This document shows, one piece after another, positions 1,704 through 37,121 of a DNA stretch of 45,848 nucleotides (position 1 is its first letter; every line of letters starts with the position of its first letter). The notes beneath the pieces were generated by a model, which was given only the letters and a program-made list of their open reading frames with translations, had not been told where the DNA came from and ran no database searches. This stretch comes from an uncultured Gammaproteobacteria bacterium (lineage in GTDB: Bacteria > Patescibacteriota > Microgenomatia > UBA12405). The position numbers and the translations under genes were made by a program. The stretch lies in NCBI GenBank assembly GCA_964448705.1, contig CAYUZS010000002.1, positions 1,729-47,576 on the forward strand, read 5' to 3'.

Positions 1704-2480
1704 TTATTTTTGCAGGATTATAAAATGATGATGGGAAAATATCTCTAAAAAGGAGTGGTTTAATATTGTGTCTATTATTTTGGTAATTGGGTAAATTCTG
1801 TTTAAGGAAAATTGCAGCTTACCCGGTGCAATTTCCGGTAAAAAATCTGTTTTTTGATAAAGAATTATCTTATATTTATTTTGGCTGAGTAATTTAAATA
1901 TTTCATGTTTGGAAAACTTTATATCATGACTTTTTGCTAAGAATTCGGTTAATGCGAATTTGTTTGGTGTCCTAGATATTACCAGATGACCATGTTTTTT
2001 TAGCACCCGATATATCTCATTAAGAACTATAGGTAATATTTTTGCCGGAATATGTTCTAAGACAGCATGACAAAAAACCATATCGAAACAATCATTTTTA
2101 TATGGAAAATTGTTACCATCATAAAACTGAAAATGTAAATTTTTGTTTGATTTTTCAAGATTTTCCCAAAGCAATCTTTGTGATTTCTTGCCTTTTAGAA
2201 TAAAAGCATTTTGGACTTCTTCGTTTTTGTCATAAATATCAATTGCTTCGATTTTATTATTTAAGTTAGCTAATAAAAAGCTTGTTAGCCCGGTTCCGCA
2301 ACCTAAGTCTAATATTTTAATTTTCTGTTTTTTGATTTTTCCAAAAGTGGTGTTTATTATCTTCTTAATGCCGCTTAGGTAGGGTAATGAGTGAAATAAA
2401 AATTCTTCTTTTTTAAAGTTACTTTTTTCCAGGATTAAGATAAACTGAGAAAAATAGATATCAGTTAAGGTTTTGATCAT
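1704..2480 (-). CDS. class I SAM-dependent methyltransferase
   Basis: 258 aa. Motif I ILDLGCGTGLTS plus downstream acidic and post-I motifs (AIDIYD, FDMVFCHAVLEH). Confidence 0.7.
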   Translation of the reverse strand: MIKTLTDIYFSQFILILEKSNFKKEEFLFHSLPYLSGIKKIINTTFGKIKKQKIKILDLGCGTGLTSFLLANLNNKIEAIDIYDKNEEVQNAFILKGKKSQRLLWENLEKSNKNLHFQFYDGNNFPYKNDCFDMVFCHAVLEHIPAKILPIVLNEIYRVLKKHGHLVISRTPNKFALTEFLAKSHDIKFSKHEIFKLLSQNKYKIILYQKTDFLPEIAPGKLQFSLNRIYPITKIIDTILNHSFLEIFSHHHFIILQK

Positions 2481-2584
2481 AAATAATGTACAAAAACATA
2501 AATATTAATGTTATTTTTATATAAATGATCCAGGATTAGTAATGATATTTATGTAGTAATAAATAATACAATACAGAGCAACAA

Positions 2585-3163
2585 ATGAAAATACTAGAGA
2601 ATATTACTGTTGAGGAAATGGTGGCTGTTTTTTTAAGCGGTGAACTTAATTCACCAAGGTGGGGAGAAAAAATAAAAGCTATTCTGACAAAAAATAAGAT
2701 AGATGAGCGGATAATAACTAACCCGGATATTAAAAATAAAGATGAAAATTCTAAAAGAGCTTTGGTCCTAGGAGAATCAAGGGGTTATGGCCGAAAAGAC
2801 GGTTTGTTCGATGATTTGGAAGAAGTGACGGGATGGAAAAGGGTTTTGTTGGAATCTGATGATTTTAAAAACATTAGGTATATTGATTATGATTACTGGA
2901 ACGAATTGTCGGGAAAAACAAGATTAGTGACCGAAGGGGCTAAGAGTGTTGAAGAAGGACGGGAATTTTTTAATGTTAGTAACCAACAATATTGGCAGGT
3001 TAGCGAATTCGTAAAAAAGGGCGGCAGATTTCCCAGTTTAATTTTGATATCAGATAAAACGGGAAAAATGAAATTACTTGAAGGTCACGTAAGACTGACT
3101 GGTTATCTGCTAAATAATAAAGAACCCGAACCTTTAGAAGTGATTGTTGGTTTTAAAAACTAA
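2585..3163 (+). CDS. hypothetical protein
   Basis: 192-aa soluble ORF with no motif I recognise. Confidence 0.4.
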   Translation: MKILENITVEEMVAVFLSGELNSPRWGEKIKAILTKNKIDERIITNPDIKNKDENSKRALVLGESRGYGRKDGLFDDLEEVTGWKRVLLESDDFKNIRYIDYDYWNELSGKTRLVTEGAKSVEEGREFFNVSNQQYWQVSEFVKKGGRFPSLILISDKTGKMKLLEGHVRLTGYLLNNKEPEPLEVIVGFKN

Positions 3164-4516
3164 CTATTTTGAAGATCGATAAGTTTTAAAAAAAGATCGG
3201 GAAATCATAAAGAACAAAATCAGATTGAGGATAGAGAGAGATTTTCCAATAAGAAAATTATTCGATTTTATGAGCGGCGGAAGCCAGCTTAACCATGACC
3301 AGGGCATGAAAGCATTGAACAGATTTAAAGTATAAATTGCAGCCAAAATTAGAAAATATTTTAAATATTTTCTCTGATAGATGGAAAGCAAAAGTATGGA
3401 GACGATGCTGATAAAAAAATAACGTTCGTGAATACCGGTCATAAATAAAAAACAACCAAAACTGTTGATAAACATAGCGGCCAGTAAGTTGTCTATCTTT
3501 TTGGTTTTTAAAGATAGTATGGCAAATACAATTGTGACTGCAGAAAGCAGCCAACCCCATGTTTTTAGATAAAATCCCAGAAATAAGTTGGTATCCAATT
3601 GACTTTGACTGCCAATAAAAGGATAAAAAATATACCAGAAGTTGAAGGCATTATAGTTTATAAAACCATCACTGGTAGTGATCTTATAAGGCAGGACATT
3701 TAAACTATATATTAAAGAATTATCCGAAGTGAACCAGGAAACAGTCCAGAAAGTGAAAACGGCGGCAATTATTCCCCCGATAAACAGTTTAAAAAAAGAT
3801 TGTTTTTGGATGTAGATGCCATAAAAATAAATCGGAGCAACAATCAGACAGGTTGGTTTTATATTGGCAGCAATAGCATATAAAAGCGGAGACATGAAAA
3901 AATATTTTTTGGAAAAAATAAGAAGAAAAGAAATAATAAAAAAGATGAATGAAAGCTGGTCTGACTGCCCCCAAACTGAGGATATGTACCAGGAAAACGG
4001 CAAAAATAAATATAAAAAAACCGGTAAATGCCAATCTTTTTTGGCTTTTCGACAAAGATAATAAATGACAACAGCGATGCCAAGATCGGCAACAATCATA
4101 AATTGTTTAAGAATAAAAATGACTCCGGAAAGGATTGGAGTAGTGTTGTACAAATCGGTTCCAAACCAAATGGAAAAATTGAAGAGCCATACGAATTTGG
4201 TCGGAGCTAAACGATGAAGGGCAATGAAATTACCCAGATTTGAAAGAACACCCATTAACCAACCATGCAAAGGTCTTAGAATGTAATAAAGTGACGAGAT
4301 TAAAGGCGGATGGTTTGGAAAACCACTTCCCCAAACGTCCCACTGATAATAACCTTTAAGTGTTCCGAAATTAGAGGCAGTTTGCCCCCATCCGCTTTGA
4401 GTTAGCAGATCATCATGAGCAGTATTGAGCGACAATATAAAACGTAGAATATAGGCAATGAAAATGAGTACGAGATTAAGCCAATTGGATCTGATGAATC
4501 TGAGAAGAGTCCTCAT
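3164..4516 (-). CDS. polytopic membrane protein, GT-C-type glycosyl/mannosyltransferase-like
   Basis: 450 aa, 10 or more hydrophobic helices, aromatic-rich loops, no soluble domain. Assigned from architecture only (ArnT/PMT/DUF2029-like). Confidence 0.45.
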   Translation of the reverse strand: MRTLLRFIRSNWLNLVLIFIAYILRFILSLNTAHDDLLTQSGWGQTASNFGTLKGYYQWDVWGSGFPNHPPLISSLYYILRPLHGWLMGVLSNLGNFIALHRLAPTKFVWLFNFSIWFGTDLYNTTPILSGVIFILKQFMIVADLGIAVVIYYLCRKAKKDWHLPVFLYLFLPFSWYISSVWGQSDQLSFIFFIISFLLIFSKKYFFMSPLLYAIAANIKPTCLIVAPIYFYGIYIQKQSFFKLFIGGIIAAVFTFWTVSWFTSDNSLIYSLNVLPYKITTSDGFINYNAFNFWYIFYPFIGSQSQLDTNLFLGFYLKTWGWLLSAVTIVFAILSLKTKKIDNLLAAMFINSFGCFLFMTGIHERYFFISIVSILLLSIYQRKYLKYFLILAAIYTLNLFNAFMPWSWLSWLPPLIKSNNFLIGKSLSILNLILFFMISRSFFKTYRSSK

Positions 4517-15972: not shown

Positions 15973-17751
15973 TCATGTTTCTTGGTAGCCTTTAGCCTGA
16001 AGATTGAAAGATTTGGCATAAAGACCTTTAAGTTTAAGTAAATACTGATGGCTCCCCTGCTCAACAATCTTTCCTTTATCAATGACAATGATTCTTTGGG
16101 CGTTACGTACGGTGGAAAAACGGTGGGAAACAATGATCAGAGTTTTATTTTGAATGGTTTTATAAAGACGGCTAAAAATTTTATTTTCAGAAACAGCGTC
16201 GATGGAGGCGGTGGGTTCATCGAGAAGAATAATCGGACTGTCCCGATAAAATACTCTGGCGATGGCAATCTTCTGCATTTGTCCCCAGGAAGGTTCCTCA
16301 CCGCCATAGCGGTGGCTCATAGGAGTATTAAGACCATCAGAATATTTGTTTATGAATTGAGCATCGGCTTTTTTGAGGGCGGTGATAACTTTGGGATCAT
16401 TAATGATTTGCGGTCGGCCGATGGTAACGTTTTCCCGAAGGGAAAGATTATGATAATGATTAAATTCTTGGGAAAGATAGGATAATTGGTTATACCAACT
16501 TTCAAGATCAATCTCTTTGAGATTGATACCATTGACTAAAATTTTACCGGAGTTCGGTTCGTAAAAATGACAAAGTAGTTTAATTAAAGTACTTTTACCG
16601 GCACCATTTTGACCGACAATGGCAATTTCCTCATTACTGTTAATCGTCAGATTTAAATTTTTAAAAACGTAGCGTTTAGAACAAGGGTATTTAAAGGTGA
16701 CATTTTGGAATTCAATTTTGGCAGGGATGGGGGGAGAAATTTTAACCGAGCCGCCATTGATATTATTTTTAAGATCCAAAACTTCCCGAAAATTACTGAT
16801 ATGGTAGCTGTTTTCAGTAATATTTACCGAGCTGTAAACTAAGCCACGAAAGAAATCGGAGGTTTGTTGAATAGTCTGAAAAAAGAAGGTGAAAAGACCA
16901 ACAGTTAGGATATTACTTTGAGCATCGGAAATTAAAACATAGAGACAAATTCCGTTTATTAGAACAGAAAGCCCGATCAGAAATAATTCACTGGGACTTC
17001 GTTTAATTCTGAGCTCGATACGGGAGTTAGTGAAGAAATTAAAGCTGTCCTGGAATTTTTGAAAAAGATAACCAACGGCGTTATTTATTCTTAATTCAGA
17101 AATATAGTTTTTGGAACGGAGTTGATAATTTAAATCCCACATCATCTTGTTTTTATCGCTGTTATCTTCCCTAATTTGCCAATCTTTCTGGATCCAAAAT
17201 TTTTCCACCAAATATTGAGGAATTTGAGAGATAAATATTAGAAGCCACAGTTGAGGGTAACGGGGCAGAATAATAATAGTGACGGCAATCAGACTAATAA
17301 AATTACTAAAAATATTACTAATATCCTGAACACTTTGACGGATGCGCCAGCCAAATTCCTCATCGACTTTAGAGATAAGATTGCCGGTTTTTTTGCCTTC
17401 AAGGTGTTGGTAATCAAGGTGAGAAACTTTGTTAATGAACAAGATCCGCAGTTGGCTTTGAAGTTTAGTATCTAAAATCCGGCTAAATTGACTCTGGAGG
17501 AAATAAAAAACAGAGGAAAAAACTAAAATAATAATAAAAATACTAAAGATTGTAAGGATATTATCCTGTTGTCGATAAACAATAGTGTCGAGAAGTTGGG
17601 AAAAAACTTTATTTCGAAAAAAAGGAATACCGGCAACCAGAACCTGAATACAAAAAATACCGGAGAAAAGCAGAGGGTTGAATTTAAAAATCAATCTTAG
17701 AGTCCAAAAAGTGTTACTTAAAATCTTTTTGTATGATTTTGACTTTTTCAT
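15973..17751 (-). CDS. ABC exporter, fused permease/ATPase (MsbA/ABCB-like)
   Basis: 592 aa. Six-TM domain, Walker A GQNGAGKST, Q-loop, Walker B ILLDEPTASID, H-loop VSHR. The signature motif is atypical (PSWGQ). Confidence 0.85.
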   Translation of the reverse strand: MKKSKSYKKILSNTFWTLRLIFKFNPLLFSGIFCIQVLVAGIPFFRNKVFSQLLDTIVYRQQDNILTIFSIFIIILVFSSVFYFLQSQFSRILDTKLQSQLRILFINKVSHLDYQHLEGKKTGNLISKVDEEFGWRIRQSVQDISNIFSNFISLIAVTIIILPRYPQLWLLIFISQIPQYLVEKFWIQKDWQIREDNSDKNKMMWDLNYQLRSKNYISELRINNAVGYLFQKFQDSFNFFTNSRIELRIKRSPSELFLIGLSVLINGICLYVLISDAQSNILTVGLFTFFFQTIQQTSDFFRGLVYSSVNITENSYHISNFREVLDLKNNINGGSVKISPPIPAKIEFQNVTFKYPCSKRYVFKNLNLTINSNEEIAIVGQNGAGKSTLIKLLCHFYEPNSGKILVNGINLKEIDLESWYNQLSYLSQEFNHYHNLSLRENVTIGRPQIINDPKVITALKKADAQFINKYSDGLNTPMSHRYGGEEPSWGQMQKIAIARVFYRDSPIILLDEPTASIDAVSENKIFSRLYKTIQNKTLIIVSHRFSTVRNAQRIIVIDKGKIVEQGSHQYLLKLKGLYAKSFNLQAKGYQET

Positions 17752-18337
17752 GGCTGATTAATGTTAATCCAAGAACAAAGAAAAGAATACTGATTAATTG
17801 GGCGATTTTGATTTCACTGACGGCCCAGGTATCAGAACGAAAAAATTCAAAAATAAACCGAATAAGACCGTAACCAATAAAATAATGAGCTGTTGGAGTT
17901 TTGGATTTTTTAAGAAGAAAGAAAAGAATTAAATTAAATGAGGCTTCCAGCCACCATAAAGGAATTTCCTGATTAACAAAATTGCCCAGACGGCCAATAG
18001 CCTGACATAAAGGTAAAACCGGAGAGATGGAATCAAGTAATGATAAAAAAGAATAACCTCCTAAGCGGCAGAAAATAAAAATGAACAGGAGAGATCCTAG
18101 GATACCACCATAGATTCCGAGTCCCCCGTTCCAGGTTTGGGGTATGAGCCATAGATTTTGGGAATAAAACGACCATTGGTCGATAACATGATAGAGTCGG
18201 GCGCCAATTATGGCGGAGAAAATAGTACCAAAAACAAATAAATTAAGCTGAGAAGAGGAAATGTGTTTTTGGTGTTTTAGAAAATATTCGATACCAATGA
18301 CAAAAGAAATACCTATAATTAGGCCGTAAAGATGCAT
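17714..18337 (-). CDS. lgt: prolipoprotein diacylglyceryl transferase (short form)
   Basis: HLYGLIIGISF, GGLGIYGGILG and GRLGNFVNQE motifs. Start trimmed to ATG 18337, because the upstream 21 codons of the ORF-track ORF are a tRNA-like sequence. The 3' end overlaps the ABC gene start by 38 nt. Confidence 0.75.
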   Translation of the reverse strand: MHLYGLIIGISFVIGIEYFLKHQKHISSSQLNLFVFGTIFSAIIGARLYHVIDQWSFYSQNLWLIPQTWNGGLGIYGGILGSLLFIFIFCRLGGYSFLSLLDSISPVLPLCQAIGRLGNFVNQEIPLWWLEASFNLILFFLLKKSKTPTAHYFIGYGLIRFIFEFFRSDTWAVSEIKIAQLISILFFVLGLTLISHEKVKIIQKDFK

Positions 18338-18339
18338 GC

Positions 18340-18412
18340 GGTGGGCCCTGCGAGGATCGGACTCGCGACCAATCCCGATAAATCGGGACTGTTCTACCAA
18401 TCGAACTTCAGG
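18340..18412 (-). pseudogene. tRNA-Lys-like pseudo-tRNA: intact T arm and 3' acceptor strand, palindromic 'anticodon arm', degenerate 5' acceptor strand
   Basis: 18340..18373 is identical (34/34) to the tRNA-Lys 3' part at 18657..18690. A D-arm-like GTTC-GATTGGTA-GAAC is present. The 5' strand AATCCCT cannot pair with AGGGCCC. The 5' third is the end of the GIY-YIG ORF. Confidence 0.6.
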
Positions 18413-18654
18413 GATTGTGAATTAATAACCTTTTCAATTATTTTACGACTTTTAAGTTTTTTTAGGTATTTTTCCATTTTGTTGGCAGAGGTGATATCCG
18501 GAAATTCTTGAAAAAATTCAAGTTTGATAGGAAGAAATTTTTTGGTAAAAGTGCTTTTGCCGGAGGAATGATCAATTATTCGTTGACTGATATTGGTTGT
18601 ACTGCCGATATAAAACTTATCGTTGCTGAGTCTTAGGATATATACCCAGGCCAT
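18394..18654 (-). CDS. stand-alone GIY-YIG nuclease domain protein (86 aa)
   Basis: WVYIL...FYIGSTTNISQRIIDH...KLEFFQEF...: GIY/YIG, Arg and Glu motifs of the GIY-YIG fold. The ATG lies 1 nt after the CCA of tRNA-Lys, and the stop TAG lies in the D-loop-like GATTGGTAG of the pseudo-tRNA. Confidence 0.75.
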   Translation of the reverse strand: MAWVYILRLSNDKFYIGSTTNISQRIIDHSSGKSTFTKKFLPIKLEFFQEFPDITSANKMEKYLKKLKSRKIIEKVINSQSLKFDW

Positions 18655-18655
18655 T

Positions 18656-18730
18656 TGGTGGGCCCTGCGAGGATCGGACTCGCGACCAATTGCTTAAAAG
18701 GCAACTGCTCTACCACTGAGCTAAGGACCC
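18656..18730 (-). tRNA. tRNA-Lys (anticodon TTT), CCA encoded, unusual T loop TCCGATC
   Basis: GGGTCCT/AGGGCCC acceptor, D arm GCTC-AGTGGTA-GAGC, anticodon arm GTTGC-CTTTTAA-GCAAT, T arm GCGAG-TCCGATC-CTCGC, ACCA. Confidence 0.85.
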
Positions 18731-18982
18731 AAATTGTTAAATAAGCGATGTTAAGGTAATCGCGACCAATCCCGATAAATCGGGACTGCTCTACCACTGA
18801 GCTAAGGACCCAAATTGTTAAATAAGCGATGTTAAGGTAATCGCGACCAATCCCGATAAATCGGGACTGCTCTACCACTGAGCTAAGGACCCAAATTGTT
18901 AAATAAGCGATGTTAAGGTAATCGCGACCAATCCCGATAAATCGGGACTGCTCTACCACTGAGCTAAGGACCCAAATTGTTA
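18731..18982 (-). repeat. three perfect 81-bp tandem units, each carrying a truncated tRNA-Lys 5' fragment with a palindromic replacement of the anticodon arm
   Basis: Unit 5' ends are at 18973, 18892 and 18811 (minus sense). The units are identical base for base. Each has GGGTCCTTAGCTCAGTGGTAGAGCAG, then TCCCGATTTATCGGGA, then TTGGTCGCGA, then a 29-nt spacer. Confidence 0.9.
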
Positions 18983-18994
18983 GTTCGTTCCTGT

Positions 18995-19309
18995 TTATAG
19001 GGTTTTTTTAGTTTTGGAGTTACGGACGTAATAGAGTTTGGAACGACGAATTTTGGATTTTGGAGAACGAAGTTTTTTAATACTTTCGATCCATGGAGAA
19101 TCAATAGTAAAGATTCTTTCAACTTTAATTCCATCGGCGGCATCTTTACGGATAATGATGCTTTTATTGCTACCTTTTCCCTGAACAGCCAAAAGAATAC
19201 CATCGAAAGCTTGAATTCTTTCTTTGTCTTTTTCTTTGATCTTATAATTAATTTTAAGGGTATCACCAACGGTATATTCGTGATCCTGGTGCGTAAATTT
19301 GAGTGACAT
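18995..19309 (-). CDS. rplS: 50S ribosomal protein L19
   Basis: 104 aa. ERIQAFDGILLAV...IRK...GIKVERIF...SPWIESI...RRSKLYYVR matches the L19 consensus. Confidence 0.9.
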   Translation of the reverse strand: MSLKFTHQDHEYTVGDTLKINYKIKEKDKERIQAFDGILLAVQGKGSNKSIIIRKDAADGIKVERIFTIDSPWIESIKKLRSPKSKIRRSKLYYVRNSKTKKTL

Positions 19310-19401
19310 AGTTAATTATTTAATAATGAATTATTCTATCAGAAACTTTGGTATTTTATATTAACTAGCTTCAGTTATCAACCTGTAGATTATTTTGATT
19401 A

Positions 19402-34589: not shown

Positions 34590-37121
34590 ATGTTAAAAAT
34601 GTTACAAAAATTATTATTAACATTTTTATTTGTTTTCTTTCTGATTTTACCAAAAATAACGCTTGCTTCTGAATATCTGTATAATGATGAATTCAATAAC
34701 TTTGACTATGAAAAGTGGTCATTTAACCAAAATGAAGGTTCTTTTGAAATTGATAATGGAATAATTACACTCGATAGTCATCTTGGTTCTTTTCCTGTCA
34801 TGTATAGTAAATTTCAAAACGTATTCACTTCATCTGGAAAAAACACTCTTGATGTACGTTTTAAATATAATAGCTATGGTTCTATGGGTGATGGAATAAG
34901 TATTGGTTATACAGGAGATACTATTTATCCGTATTATCAATTTTCTCTTTGGAGAGATTTATGGCCAGTGTTTTCATATAATGATTTTAATAAGGCAAAG
35001 TATTCTTACTGTACAAAATTTGAACCATGGAAGGATATTGACGATAGAGTAAACGTCACATTAAACAATAATGATAATGATTGGCATGTTTTAACAATTA
35101 ATAAAATAAATTCTTGGTATCAGATATTTATTGATAAAGACACGAACCCCACTCCTATATATAGTGCTTATGGTAATCAGTGTGTACCCCAAAATATAAT
35201 AATTGGAAATCCACTTTCAGGTGGTAGTACTAATTGGAACTCAATATCAATAGATTATGTCAGATCTTACGATACGGATAATCCACCACCAACTCCAACC
35301 GTCATTGAAACCCCTACTCCAACTCCAACTCCAACTTTGACACCAACATCAACTCCTACTCCAATACCAACTTTAACACCGACGATGACACCAACATCAA
35401 CTCCCACACCTACTCCAACCCTAACACCAACCCCAAAAAGAAAAATCATTATTATTCCCGGTCTTGGAGCAAGTTGGAACTCGGAGGCAATGGTTTTTAA
35501 TACCGAGGTAGAAGATGACCAATGGAAAATGACTCCGTTTGTAAATAATTATCAGCTTTTAATCGACACATTGAAATATAATGGATTGGTCGAAGGACAG
35601 GATTTTTATGTTTGGAATTATGACTGGAGAAAACCTATAAGCCAAATAGTTGGTAGACTGGACAATTTTATAAACAAAAATATTTTATCCGGTGAGAAGG
35701 TGGTCTTAATCGGTCATAGTTTGGGCGGAGTAACTGCCCGATTGTGGTCACAAAATCACCTATCTGATGATCGTTTAGATAAAGTGTTTAGTTTGGGAGG
35801 TCCACAGCTTGGAGCGATTGATGCTTATGATGTTTGGAATGGTGTTCAAATTCCTCAACGGGATTTGGTTTCCAACGCTGCCATAAATTTACTTCTAGCA
35901 TTACAAAGCCAAAATCAATTAAGCAGGCTGGAAACGTTAAGAAGCTATGCTCCGGTGCTAAAAGATTTAATGCCGACATTTGATTTTGTAAAGAAAAACG
36001 GAGTGATCGTGAATATAAACAATTTGAAAAGTAAGAACGATTATTTGATTAATGAAAACAAAAATATTTCCAGCTTAAACGATAATTATTTACCTATAGT
36101 AGGAGTCGGAGTTTCAACGAAGGAATATATAAATTTGGGAAAACAAAGCATTTTTAGTAGATTAACCGGTTTATGGCCGGACGGCGATCCGGTCGGTTAT
36201 ATTCGGGGCAATGGTGATGGAACGGTGATATATAAAAGTGCGGCATTCGGAAAAACACCGTTTGAGATTAACTCTAACCATGGTGAAATAGTTGATAAAT
36301 CGATAAGTGAAATTGTCAGAGAAATCAACTTAAATAATTACGGTGAGAGTAACTTTAAGGAGGCGGATTTAAGCGGGAAAATGTTATTTTTTATCGGTTC
36401 TCCGGCATATATGTCGGCTGACTGCGGATTGGGGGTGACAAAAGTCTCTGATGAGTTGGGTTTTATAGAAATGAGTGCTGAAAATAAACCGTGTAATGTA
36501 AAAGTGACGGCAATTGGTAATGGCGGTACTTATCATTTGGTAACCGGAAAAATCGGTGAAGAAAAAAGTTGGCAATATTTTGAAACAGAAATCAATTCAG
36601 GTGAAAGCGATGTGTTAATTTTGGATGGAAAAACAGGAGAACCTATAGACAAGAAAAATGATGACTATTGGTATAAATTGTTGATCAGAGAAATAAATCA
36701 GTTATTAAAAAAATATCCGAATAACAATCATTTGAAAACGGCTAAAGAGTCGGCGATCAGAAAAAATTTGTTAATGACAATAAATAGAGTTTTTGAATTT
36801 AGAAGAGAAAACAAGGAAATAGTGATTACAAACAGAATGATTGATTATTTTAAAGAATTGTTGATTAGTAAATATTCACGGGTAGATAGACCAAGTACAA
36901 AATATGTGTGGAATACGGTTAGCGGCAGCAGAAAAAAGATAGACACTTGGATGGAGATGTATTGGAAGCTCGGTTGGAAACCGTCGAGAATGATGATGGT
37001 TGATTATCAAAAGATTGGAGATCTTGGAGAAGAGGGAAACGAAGCTTGGAATTCAGGAAATAATGCCAGCGCTTATGCGAATTCACTATTAATGTCCTAT
37101 CTTATGGAGAGGTTTTGGTAG
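34590..37121 (+). CDS. secreted multidomain alpha/beta-hydrolase, LCAT/lipase-like, with an N-terminal lectin-like domain and a Pro/Thr linker
   Basis: 843 aa. Signal peptide; beta-rich N-domain of about 200 aa; PT linker (aa 232-282); IIIPGLGASWN, YVWNYDWRKPI (LCAT-family YDWR) and nucleophile elbow GHSLGG (35712-35729). Confidence 0.6.
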   Translation: MLKMLQKLLLTFLFVFFLILPKITLASEYLYNDEFNNFDYEKWSFNQNEGSFEIDNGIITLDSHLGSFPVMYSKFQNVFTSSGKNTLDVRFKYNSYGSMGDGISIGYTGDTIYPYYQFSLWRDLWPVFSYNDFNKAKYSYCTKFEPWKDIDDRVNVTLNNNDNDWHVLTINKINSWYQIFIDKDTNPTPIYSAYGNQCVPQNIIIGNPLSGGSTNWNSISIDYVRSYDTDNPPPTPTVIETPTPTPTPTLTPTSTPTPIPTLTPTMTPTSTPTPTPTLTPTPKRKIIIIPGLGASWNSEAMVFNTEVEDDQWKMTPFVNNYQLLIDTLKYNGLVEGQDFYVWNYDWRKPISQIVGRLDNFINKNILSGEKVVLIGHSLGGVTARLWSQNHLSDDRLDKVFSLGGPQLGAIDAYDVWNGVQIPQRDLVSNAAINLLLALQSQNQLSRLETLRSYAPVLKDLMPTFDFVKKNGVIVNINNLKSKNDYLINENKNISSLNDNYLPIVGVGVSTKEYINLGKQSIFSRLTGLWPDGDPVGYIRGNGDGTVIYKSAAFGKTPFEINSNHGEIVDKSISEIVREINLNNYGESNFKEADLSGKMLFFIGSPAYMSADCGLGVTKVSDELGFIEMSAENKPCNVKVTAIGNGGTYHLVTGKIGEEKSWQYFETEINSGESDVLILDGKTGEPIDKKNDDYWYKLLIREINQLLKKYPNNNHLKTAKESAIRKNLLMTINRVFEFRRENKEIVITNRMIDYFKELLISKYSRVDRPSTKYVWNTVSGSRKKIDTWMEMYWKLGWKPSRMMMVDYQKIGDLGEEGNEAWNSGNNASAYANSLLMSYLMERFW
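35283..35435 (+). repeat. low-complexity Pro/Thr-coding repeat (interdomain linker)
   Basis: Imperfect ACNCCN reiterations encoding PTPTVIETPTPTPTPTLTPTSTPTPIPTLTPTMTPTSTPTPTPTLTPTP. Confidence 0.9.

Follow-up and report, generated by a model that had tools for sequence, protein, structure and literature searches.

A gene for a small GIY-YIG nuclease lies between rplS and lgt on the minus strand of contig CAYUZS010000002.1, in a stretch of 45,848 nt (45.8 kb) whose whole length is called the window here, and it is surrounded by partial copies of a tRNA-Lys gene that carry a short hairpin. Read along the minus strand, the locus consists of rplS, 3.4 perfect 81-bp units, tRNA-Lys(UUU), an 86-aa GIY-YIG open reading frame (ORF), a D-arm remnant, a hairpin, the 3' half of a tRNA and lgt, with the following features.

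18995..19309, minus strand: rplS (ribosomal protein L19), the upstream neighbour; Pfam PF01245, E 9e-27
18704..18982, minus strand: tandem array, period 81, 3.4 copies, 100% matches (Tandem Repeats Finder)
18973-18893, 18892-18812 and 18811-18731, minus strand: pseudo-tRNA units 1-3, with 5' ends at 18973, 18892 and 18811
18932..18947, minus strand: hairpin TCCCGAT-TT-ATCGGGA of unit 1, in place of the anticodon arm (tRNA positions 27-43)
18851-18866 and 18770-18785, minus strand: identical hairpin copies in the other units
18907..18925, minus strand: second stem-loop of the unit, GCGAT-TACCTTAAC-ATCGC, at the T-arm position; repeated at 18826-18844 and 18745-18763
18656..18730, minus strand: functional tRNA-Lys(UUU) with encoded CCA (ARAGORN; Rfam RF00005, 68.9 bits)
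18394..18654, minus strand: GIY-YIG ORF, 86 aa, with its ATG 1 nt past the tRNA CCA and its TAG stop inside GGTAGAACAG
18338..18398, minus strand: downstream pseudo-tRNA, made of GGTAGAACAG (18398-18389), the hairpin (18388-18373), tRNA positions 44-76 (18372-18340) and GC
18335..18373 (right) and 18652-18690 (left), minus strand: 39-nt direct repeat (tRNA positions 44-76, 2-3 nt and ATG), 95% identity
17714..18337, minus strand: lgt (prolipoprotein diacylglyceryl transferase); Pfam PF01790, E 1.5e-42; the ATG at 18337 agrees with orthologues

As the original prediction, made from the sequence alone, had held, three perfect 81-bp units begin at these 5' ends, an intact tRNA-Lys(UUU) with its CCA is followed 1 nt on by the nuclease ORF (ARAGORN, Rfam, Pfam), and a further copy with the hairpin and a match to the tRNA 3' part ends 2 nt before the lgt ATG. 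Each 81-bp unit joins tRNA-Lys positions 1-26, TCCCGATTTATCGGGA, TTGGTC, the second stem-loop and the native leader TTATTTAACAATTT, and the last, partial copy of the array is the leader and positions 1-26 of the real tRNA-Lys. The hairpin, which had been called a perfect palindrome, is in fact a 7+7 inverted repeat around a TT centre, where its reverse complement has AA. Folded as RNA with its tRNA-derived flanks, it gives a 9-bp stem (-14.0 kcal/mol, z -4.1), and it is found at only four places in the window, where 0.6 occurrences are expected even with 3 mismatches allowed. The second stem-loop is kept in the orthologous loci L005 and L080, and L001 has GCGGT...ATCGC, which allows G-U pairing on the sense strand.

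The original prediction had called for tRNA models to be run on each copy. ARAGORN and Rfam (to E 10) find exactly one tRNA in the locus, at 18656-18730, and the units and the downstream copy stay below any threshold tried. The 81-bp units have no 3' acceptor strand, their folds contain no acceptor stem, and neither they nor the downstream copy form a cloverleaf with a 7-nt anticodon loop; the pseudo-tRNA units are not decoding tRNAs. The idea that they are anticodon-less tRNA mimics directed against anticodon nucleases finds no support in units that lack the acceptor 3' strand, the anticodon loop and any tRNA score and that number zero, one or more among orthologues.

Downstream of the nuclease ORF, 33-34 nt after the hairpin match the 3' part of the tRNA exactly and are followed by GC and the lgt ATG. 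This downstream pseudo-tRNA most probably represents the 3' end that the tRNA had originally, because alleles without the nuclease have tRNA-Lys 2-4 nt from lgt. The two 39-nt direct repeats enclose the ORF together with the D-arm remnant and the hairpin. As in islands of the integrase type, the insert has an intact tRNA on one side and the 3' part of that tRNA, directly repeated, on the other. Between the repeats (18374-18651) the only gene is the GIY-YIG ORF, with no tyrosine or serine recombinase. GGTAGAACAG is the 3' side of the tRNA D arm and supplies the TAG stop of the ORF. Of the earlier claim that the end of the ORF is a tRNA remnant, the D-arm portion stands, as homology to the tRNA is clear for positions ~16-26; the acceptor arm also claimed does not, since that stretch varies among orthologues. 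A search for a second nuclease copy in the window found none.

A scan of 18200-19400 for promoters and terminators returned none within the units or after the hairpin, and the ideas of a promoter in each unit and of the hairpin as a terminator were dropped. In L076 (2063-2096) the upstream unit, which lies between rplS and the tRNA, ends in hairpin-TTGGTCG-T8 and so resembles an intrinsic terminator; the units in the window have no such T run.

The product of the ORF matches Pfam PF01541, the GIY-YIG domain (E 2.9e-15). A profile built from 12 orthologues matches BH0048 (1ZG2, E 2.2e-12) and EF2693 (1YWL, E 3.3e-10) in the PDB, both of which belong to UPF0213, while the same profile matches Slx1 weakly (E 0.06-0.8) and I-TevI at E 0.55. 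The AlphaFold model has a pLDDT (predicted local distance difference test) score of 90, and Foldseek ranks 1ZG2, Slx1 (root-mean-square deviation 2.3 A) and 1YWL, in that order, all above I-TevI. By profile and predicted fold, the protein is thus a minimal stand-alone GIY-YIG nuclease domain of the UPF0213/Slx1-like kind and not of the I-TevI/UvrC type. The catalytic residues Y5, Y15, R25, H29 and E61 are invariant across the 12 sequences. The Pfam domain covers residues 1-70 of 86, the model adds one short helix, and there is no DNA-binding domain of the I-TevI/Seg type. Pfam gives GIY-YIG and a below-threshold match to T5orf172, with nothing of an HUH/Y1 transposase. PADLOC (E 5e-4 or worse) and PHROGs give weak partial matches, and phage genomes give 5 weak matches among 50,697 records. 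The family itself is large, with 20,713 representatives at 50% identity (E <= 0.001).

Orthologues at 52-79% protein identity share the rplS-tRNA-Lys-ORF-lgt context (e.g., L001-L008, L011-L017, L076 and L080), and rplS is a conserved synteny anchor whose position is kept in L001-L007, L015, L017 and L076-L082. In all these orthologues the hairpin follows the ORF, and the D-arm TAG is the stop codon in all except L014 and L016, where the frames end just outside the remnant. The upstream units vary in number, with one in L001, L005 and L080, at least two in L011 and none in L007 and L015. The ratio of nonsynonymous to synonymous substitution rates (dN/dS) of the nuclease ORF is 0.11-0.15, at a proportion of synonymous differences (pS) of 0.56-0.84 that is at or near saturation, which shows purifying selection on it. 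When the ORF-lgt region is aligned for 11 lineages, AGAGCAG-TCCCGA...TCGGGA-TTGGTCGC is invariant or nearly so in variable surroundings. Because it is invariant while synonymous sites are saturated, the hairpin is constrained and not neutral, even where it is the only copy in its locus (L007 and L015). Since orthologues of this divergence share synteny, the insertion at tRNA-Lys is old, and only the 81-bp array looks recent.

The metagenome-assembled genomes of L014, L015, L016 and L028 are labelled "uncultured Gammaproteobacteria", and these labels may be wrong; L014, L015 and L016 share the rplS-tRNA-Lys-nuclease-lgt locus with Shapirobacteria/Microgenomates-like genomes, and L028 is a tRNA-Glu locus of form A, as defined below. 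In L006 (3969-5693) a 574-aa serine recombinase (Resolvase/Recombinase) stands beside a tRNA-Glu just downstream of lgt and is probably a separate integrative element.

We collected other states of this site by a metagenome scan with the Lgt of the window. The "empty" tRNA-Lys-lgt site that the original prediction had proposed to look for exists in close relatives (L078, L079 and L082), where tRNA-Lys stands 2-4 nt from lgt with neither nuclease nor hairpin, so that presence and absence of the cassette vary among relatives as with homing elements, the window, L076, L080 and others being occupied. In the Lgt tree the empty alleles nest among carriers of the window's arrangement (form B below), which is found on deep branches too. 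We infer that the empty alleles arose by secondary precise loss via the flanking direct repeats, with regain as the alternative. At the same tRNA, L089 and L077 have, on its upstream side, a nuclease of another lineage (31% identity), with two perfect 81-bp pseudo-units and another hairpin, TCCGCCAACTGGCGGA, and L083 has a form A occupant with yet another hairpin. L076 is the closest relative of the window by Lgt (68%), yet its nuclease groups with that of L015, and the TCCCGAC stem is common to both; as judged from neighbour-joining trees of these short proteins, nuclease and hairpin may have been replaced horizontally together in L076. Where T arms differ between genomes (the window, L007, L014 and L015), the T arm of the pseudo-tRNA equals that of the genome's own tRNA, which points to probable gene conversion.

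Further states are found elsewhere in the family. Truncated or frameshifted ORFs occur in L017, L024 and L075, multiple ORF copies in L031 (three) and in L043, L042, L054 and L064 (two each), and tandem pseudo-tRNA arrays in L035, L043, L056 and L077/L089; these decayed, tandem and arrayed copies fit the life cycle of a selfish element and complete the picture. The three ORFs of L031 stand in tandem within 1.2 kb (2015-3243), with long-looped TCCCGAT hairpins between them. In L056 (3312-3462), 4.1 copies of a 37-nt unit follow tRNA-Tyr (97% matches), and this unit consists of a hairpin of the TCCCGCC..GGCGGGA type and the last 14 nt of the tRNA.

To look at the family at large, we used 62 loci from species-representative genomes, retrieved by protein alignment only. 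A tRNA lies within 150 nt of the ORF in 49 of the 62 loci, and the near-ORF tRNAs are all on the strand of the ORF (58, versus 0 on the opposite strand). The tRNA density near the ORF is 3.19 per kb, versus 0.079 per kb elsewhere in the same loci. The adjoining tRNAs cover 15 amino-acid types (Ala to Tyr), and the hosts include many Patescibacteria groups, Bacteroidota, Ignavibacteria, Omnitrophota, Saganbacteria and Atribacteria. A partial duplicate of the adjoining tRNA usually lies across the ORF, with breakpoints near positions 26-28 and 44-46. Two arrangements recur. In form A, the order is pseudo-5' fragment, ORF and real tRNA; the ORF begins 6-20 nt past position 26 of the fragment and stops within the real tRNA, often at a TAG at tRNA positions 8-10, which gives a 10-nt overlap. 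In form B, the real tRNA is followed by the ORF and by a pseudo-tRNA with the hairpin for its anticodon arm, as in the window and at tRNA-Met (Peribacteria), tRNA-Asp (Ignavibacteria) and tRNA-Ala (Draconibacterium).

The Draconibacterium locus (L060) comes from a cultured Bacteroidota isolate, Draconibacterium mangrovi GM2-18, and its duplicate (2926-2965 and 3297-3335) includes the intrinsic terminator downstream of tRNA-Ala, so that the repeat is ~70 nt long; the last 7 codons of its ORF are tRNA positions ~4-22. Its sister species (L075) has the same hairpin and a frameshifted ORF. Rfam searches of 16 related loci (gathering threshold) and of the window locus (E <= 10) returned tRNAs and, as unrelated RNAs, an AdoCbl-II (cobalamin) riboswitch in L014 (3022-3100, 45 bits) and an RNase P RNA in L025 (4570-5053, 141 bits). 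A weak match to YrlA (E 0.17, 21 of 69 bits) was rejected, as it covers the tRNA-like module only.

The overlap of tRNA and coding sequence also affects gene calling. In the window, gene callers may report a spurious 108-aa frame through the three units (18633-18959, minus strand; MVEQSRFIGIGRDYLNIAYL... repeated) and a spurious TTG-started 228-aa version of lgt that runs through the hairpin and the pseudo-tRNA (17714-18400, minus strand). Database proteins of the family often have N-terminal extensions of 20-35 aa that resemble translated tRNA, e.g., with VEQ/VER and GSNP/GSSP motifs; P0008, P0015, P0030, P0055, P0104, P0107, P0113 and P0152 are examples. The extension of P0008, MVEQLPFKQLVASPILAGPTE, corresponds to tRNA-Lys sequence, and the others were judged tRNA-derived by eye. 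Such tRNA-like N-termini would result from a systematic error of gene calling and, at the same time, be an independent sign of form B, in which the ORF follows the tRNA. The nuclease ORF in occupied alleles and lgt in empty alleles start at the same distance past the tRNA-Lys 3' end, 2-4 nt, and no Shine-Dalgarno sequence is evident (window 18335-18345, L078 2495-2510, L079 and L082). Processing of the tRNA 3' end may yield near-leaderless mRNAs from which both genes are translated. Elsewhere in the window, a coding-type tandem repeat at 35313-35431 (period 48, 6-nt sub-period, ACTCCA-like) probably encodes a Thr/Pro-rich segment and is unrelated to the cassette.

The hairpin is associated with the family as well. 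Our count took in YCCCGA(Y)...(R)TCGGGR stems along with the related CTCCGAC and AGCCGAC stems, all of which are termed CCGA-type here. There are 69 such hairpins within 400 nt on either side of the ORFs versus 21 in the remaining 264 kb, a density ~14-fold higher, and shuffled sequences give 0.85; at least one is present in 36 of the 62 loci. Among 66 unrelated lgt loci there are no such hairpins apart from 7 loose regular-expression matches. The hairpin replaces the anticodon arm of pseudo-tRNA-Met in Peribacteria, of pseudo-tRNA-Asp in Ignavibacteria and of pseudo-tRNA-Ala and -Pro in Bacteroidota; in other placements it is inserted precisely into a D loop without target duplication, replaces the T arm (L011), or is nested in another hairpin. 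Other nuclease clades carry TCCCGC or TCCGCC stems, and hairpin and tRNA types cluster with nuclease clade in a rough tree. Stem differences are compensatory (TCCCGAC/GTCGGGA, TACCGA/TCGGTA, and GACT/AGTC to AACT/AGTT), and loop length ranges from 2 to >14 nt; because of this, the element recognized would be a folded stem-loop rather than a double-stranded palindrome of fixed spacing. G-T versus A-C stem pairs, as a test of RNA against DNA, number 2-4 versus 0-1, which are too few informative pairs. The earlier suggestion that the hairpin is a scar of repair was rejected, as this stem is shared with other phyla and with unrelated tRNA species.

We think it somewhat more probable than the contrary that a selfish nuclease cassette which targets tRNA genes and has a cognate hairpin has long been resident at this locus, and that the 81-bp array is its recent local expansion. 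Among the earlier proposals, a homing GIY-YIG cassette with tRNA arms comes closest to the evidence (empty sites, another lineage at the same tRNA, an apparent swap and many tRNA species), with the difference that the insertion is not recent. We infer the cleavage specificity of the nuclease and the role of the hairpin as follows. The nuclease would recognize the folded hairpin, as a stem-loop or a cruciform, or alternatively a four-way structure formed when the hairpin-bearing pseudo-tRNA strand pairs with the real tRNA strand, and would nick or break the DNA at that structure. Repair of the break by homologous recombination between tRNA-derived repeats could then lead to entry or replacement at cognate tRNA genes, with conserved tRNA segments as portable homology arms, to concerted evolution of pseudo-tRNA and real tRNA, to expansion in tandem, of which the 3 x 81 bp array would be a case, or to precise loss via the 34-39-nt direct repeats. 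More tentatively, and well short of an even chance, the UPF0213 nuclease and the YCCCGA/TCGGGR hairpin may form a two-part mobile system in which a structure-specific nuclease of ~10 kDa recognizes its own portable hairpin and uses segments of the invaded tRNA gene as homology arms. With these arms such a system would move into and out of tRNA genes in many phyla and would duplicate and convert them. In its boldest version, the hairpin-bearing pseudo-tRNA strand or its transcript would pair with the real tRNA gene and place the nuclease at the anticodon arm, as a nucleic-acid-guided homing nuclease.

Several observations weigh against the reading of the locus as a selfish cassette. An 86-aa nuclease has no DNA-binding domain to provide sequence specificity. 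The occupied allele keeps every sequence of the empty allele, the intact tRNA included, so that classical homing leaves self-cleavage and self-immunity unexplained. The cassette at tRNA-Lys has a long history of mostly vertical inheritance and purifying selection, which fits a domesticated function too. CCGA-type hairpins are lacking in 26 of the 62 loci, several of which have the TCCCGC or TCCGCC types; several types (AGCCGAC, CCCCGAC and CTCCGAC) can occur within one locus; and in the genomes of L047 and L025 such hairpins are also found far from any nuclease gene. The trees, finally, are rough neighbour-joining trees of short proteins.

The long-term synteny and purifying selection at the site would also suit a domesticated system at the RNA level, in which the nuclease acts on tRNA or pre-tRNA and the transcript of the hairpin pseudo-tRNA serves as an inhibitor or decoy, in the manner of type III toxin-antitoxin systems, or as a guide or cofactor pairing with the tRNA gene or its transcript. 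The hairpin is kept while adjoining sequence decays, its stem changes are compensatory and its loops variable, a few pairs are G-U compatible on the sense strand (L016, L027 and L001) and about none on the antisense strand, and a repeat array lies upstream of the nuclease gene, as in ToxIN. In passages of a 2006 survey of GIY-YIG domains, prokaryotic Slx1-like domains are linked or fused to the COG4123 methyltransferase and a TrmH-type tRNA methyltransferase (PMC1564403). Nevertheless, we consider this explanation rather unlikely. Empty alleles, pseudogenes, tandem ORFs and switches of tRNA species are typical of selfish DNA; orthologues have no upstream units (L007 and L015), one (L001 and L005) or more (L011); the units are without acceptor 3' strand or tRNA score, and the scan of 18200-19400 gives them and the hairpin no promoter or terminator; the G-U asymmetry rests on 2-4 cases; and PADLOC has no convincing model match for the nuclease. 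Alternatively, the hairpins could be RNA structures that serve only the embedded ORF, by protecting its mRNA from exonucleases in the pre-tRNA leader or trailer or as processing sites, and the nuclease would have another target or be unspecific. This is consistent with the position of the hairpin, just 5' of an ORF that is upstream of the tRNA and just 3' of the stop codon of an ORF that is downstream of it, with stable GC-rich stems in AT-rich genomes, and with starts of the ORF and lgt 0-4 nt past the tRNA 3' end, which suggest dependence on tRNA processing. It leaves unexplained why the same stem sequence occurs across phyla, why hairpins sit in pseudo-tRNA loops or replace arms instead of lying anywhere in the untranslated region, why they are nested, and why a real tRNA separates the upstream units of the window from the ORF, and we regard it as quite improbable.

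Precise insertion without target duplication, occasional nesting and the dispersed copies in L047 and L025 would also be seen if the hairpins were independent small mobile GC-rich palindromes that colonise dispensable DNA, here pseudo-tRNA debris of nuclease- or slippage-induced duplications, and were functionally independent of the nuclease; such behaviour is known from mitochondrial GC clusters and double-hairpin elements (PMC4478555). The 14-fold higher density near the ORF, the absence of hairpins from empty alleles and, apart from the loose matches, from the 66 unrelated lgt loci, the agreement of hairpin type with nuclease lineage at the same site, and the invariance over saturated divergence even in single copy make this very unlikely. 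That the array itself was mis-assembled from one unit is suggested by the perfect identity of the copies and by contigs of relatives that often break at the locus (L008, L011-L013, L016 and L077). Short-read assemblers, however, mostly collapse tandem repeats instead of expanding them; L077 and L089, from different samples, share an identical 2.3-copy array, and independent assemblies contain at least two units (L011) or arrays (L043 and L056), which leaves an artefact only a very slight chance.

UPF0213 is a very large family whose nuclear magnetic resonance structures were released in 2005 and which has no assigned function, and the tRNA genes, their duplicates and the hairpin give it a concrete candidate substrate. 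If the proposed mechanism is true, it shows how site specificity is reached by a minimal nuclease that lacks a DNA-binding domain, and how tRNA genes act as universal landing pads that need no integrase. For annotation, such cassettes create pseudo-tRNAs, spurious ORFs, nucleases mis-called with tRNA-encoded N-termini and broken metagenome contigs. Cultured hosts such as D. mangrovi GM2-18 make the idea testable.

Full-text searches of the literature on GIY-YIG, UPF0213 or YhbQ together with tRNA, hairpin, pseudo-tRNA or Patescibacteria did not find the arrangement described, in agreement with the original prediction, and there is a real chance that this cassette, as a tRNA-associated selfish nuclease element, represents a new class of mobile system. 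Several known systems resemble it in part. Type III toxin-antitoxin systems (ToxIN) have tandem direct repeats upstream of a small nuclease gene, with toxins of the ToxN, CptN and TenpN families. The window locus has no such toxin with a conserved repeat array: its nuclease is of the GIY-YIG kind, the repeat number among orthologues ranges from zero upward, and a real tRNA stands between the repeats and the ORF. Repetitive extragenic palindromic (REP) elements with REP-associated tyrosine transposases (RAYT), and the insertion sequences IS200/IS605 with TnpA, combine a small nuclease gene with cognate short palindromic hairpins that are recognized as folded DNA and are able to multiply. Their enzymes are HUH/Y1 transposases and their hairpins are dispersed genome-wide and not tied to tRNA genes, whereas those of the cassette are concentrated around the nuclease gene, within copies of the tRNA. 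Mobile endonuclease ORFs, in work by Paquin et al. of 1994 and 2000 (cited in PMC3787672), reportedly duplicate the end of the invaded gene and leave a displaced copy downstream. Mitochondrial GC clusters and double-hairpin elements are GC-rich palindromes that multiply in AT-rich genomes, merge, nest and spread by recombination at conserved flanks (PMC4478555); both these palindromes and the mobile endonuclease ORFs differ in being organellar and mostly in protein-coding genes, with no conserved link established between one nuclease family and one hairpin stem.

Integrase-borne islands and prophages in tRNA genes leave one complete and one partial tRNA copy as attL and attR (PMC9897764; Williams 2002, cited there). 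The insert in the window likewise lies between an intact tRNA and a directly repeated copy of that tRNA's 3' part; in both cases a single tRNA is left after precise loss, and partial copies confuse annotation. The insert differs in that it is ~320 bp long, encodes a nuclease and no tyrosine or serine recombinase, and its partial copy also keeps a piece of the D arm, with the hairpin in place of the anticodon arm. In sequence and fold, the protein itself resembles the UPF0213 proteins 1ZG2 and 1YWL and the Slx1 domain, as a minimal stand-alone GIY-YIG domain. Slx1 is described as a structure-specific nuclease for branched DNA in the titles of 6SEH and 7CQ3 and in a passage of PMC8287910, and the passages of the 2006 survey on tRNA mention neither adjacency to tRNA genes nor hairpins (PMC1564403). 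According to passages of PMC2330249 and PMC13096335, SegB is a free-standing GIY-YIG homing endonuclease of the tRNA gene cluster of T-even phages that is statistically enriched near tRNAs of many isotypes; it cuts inside tRNA genes, and tandem amplification of tRNA segments depends both on SegB being active as a nuclease and on uvsX and uvsY, recombination genes of the phage (PMC13096335). SegB is a phage gene of the I-TevI/UvrC-type lineage with a DNA-binding extension, whereas the window protein is an 86-aa Slx1-like/UPF0213 domain of cellular genomes, and those passages of PMC2330249 and PMC13096335 describe no hairpin-substituted pseudo-tRNA for SegB. As a GIY-YIG gene among tRNA genes, SegB is, as far as these passages go, the nearest tested precedent for the cassette in the window.

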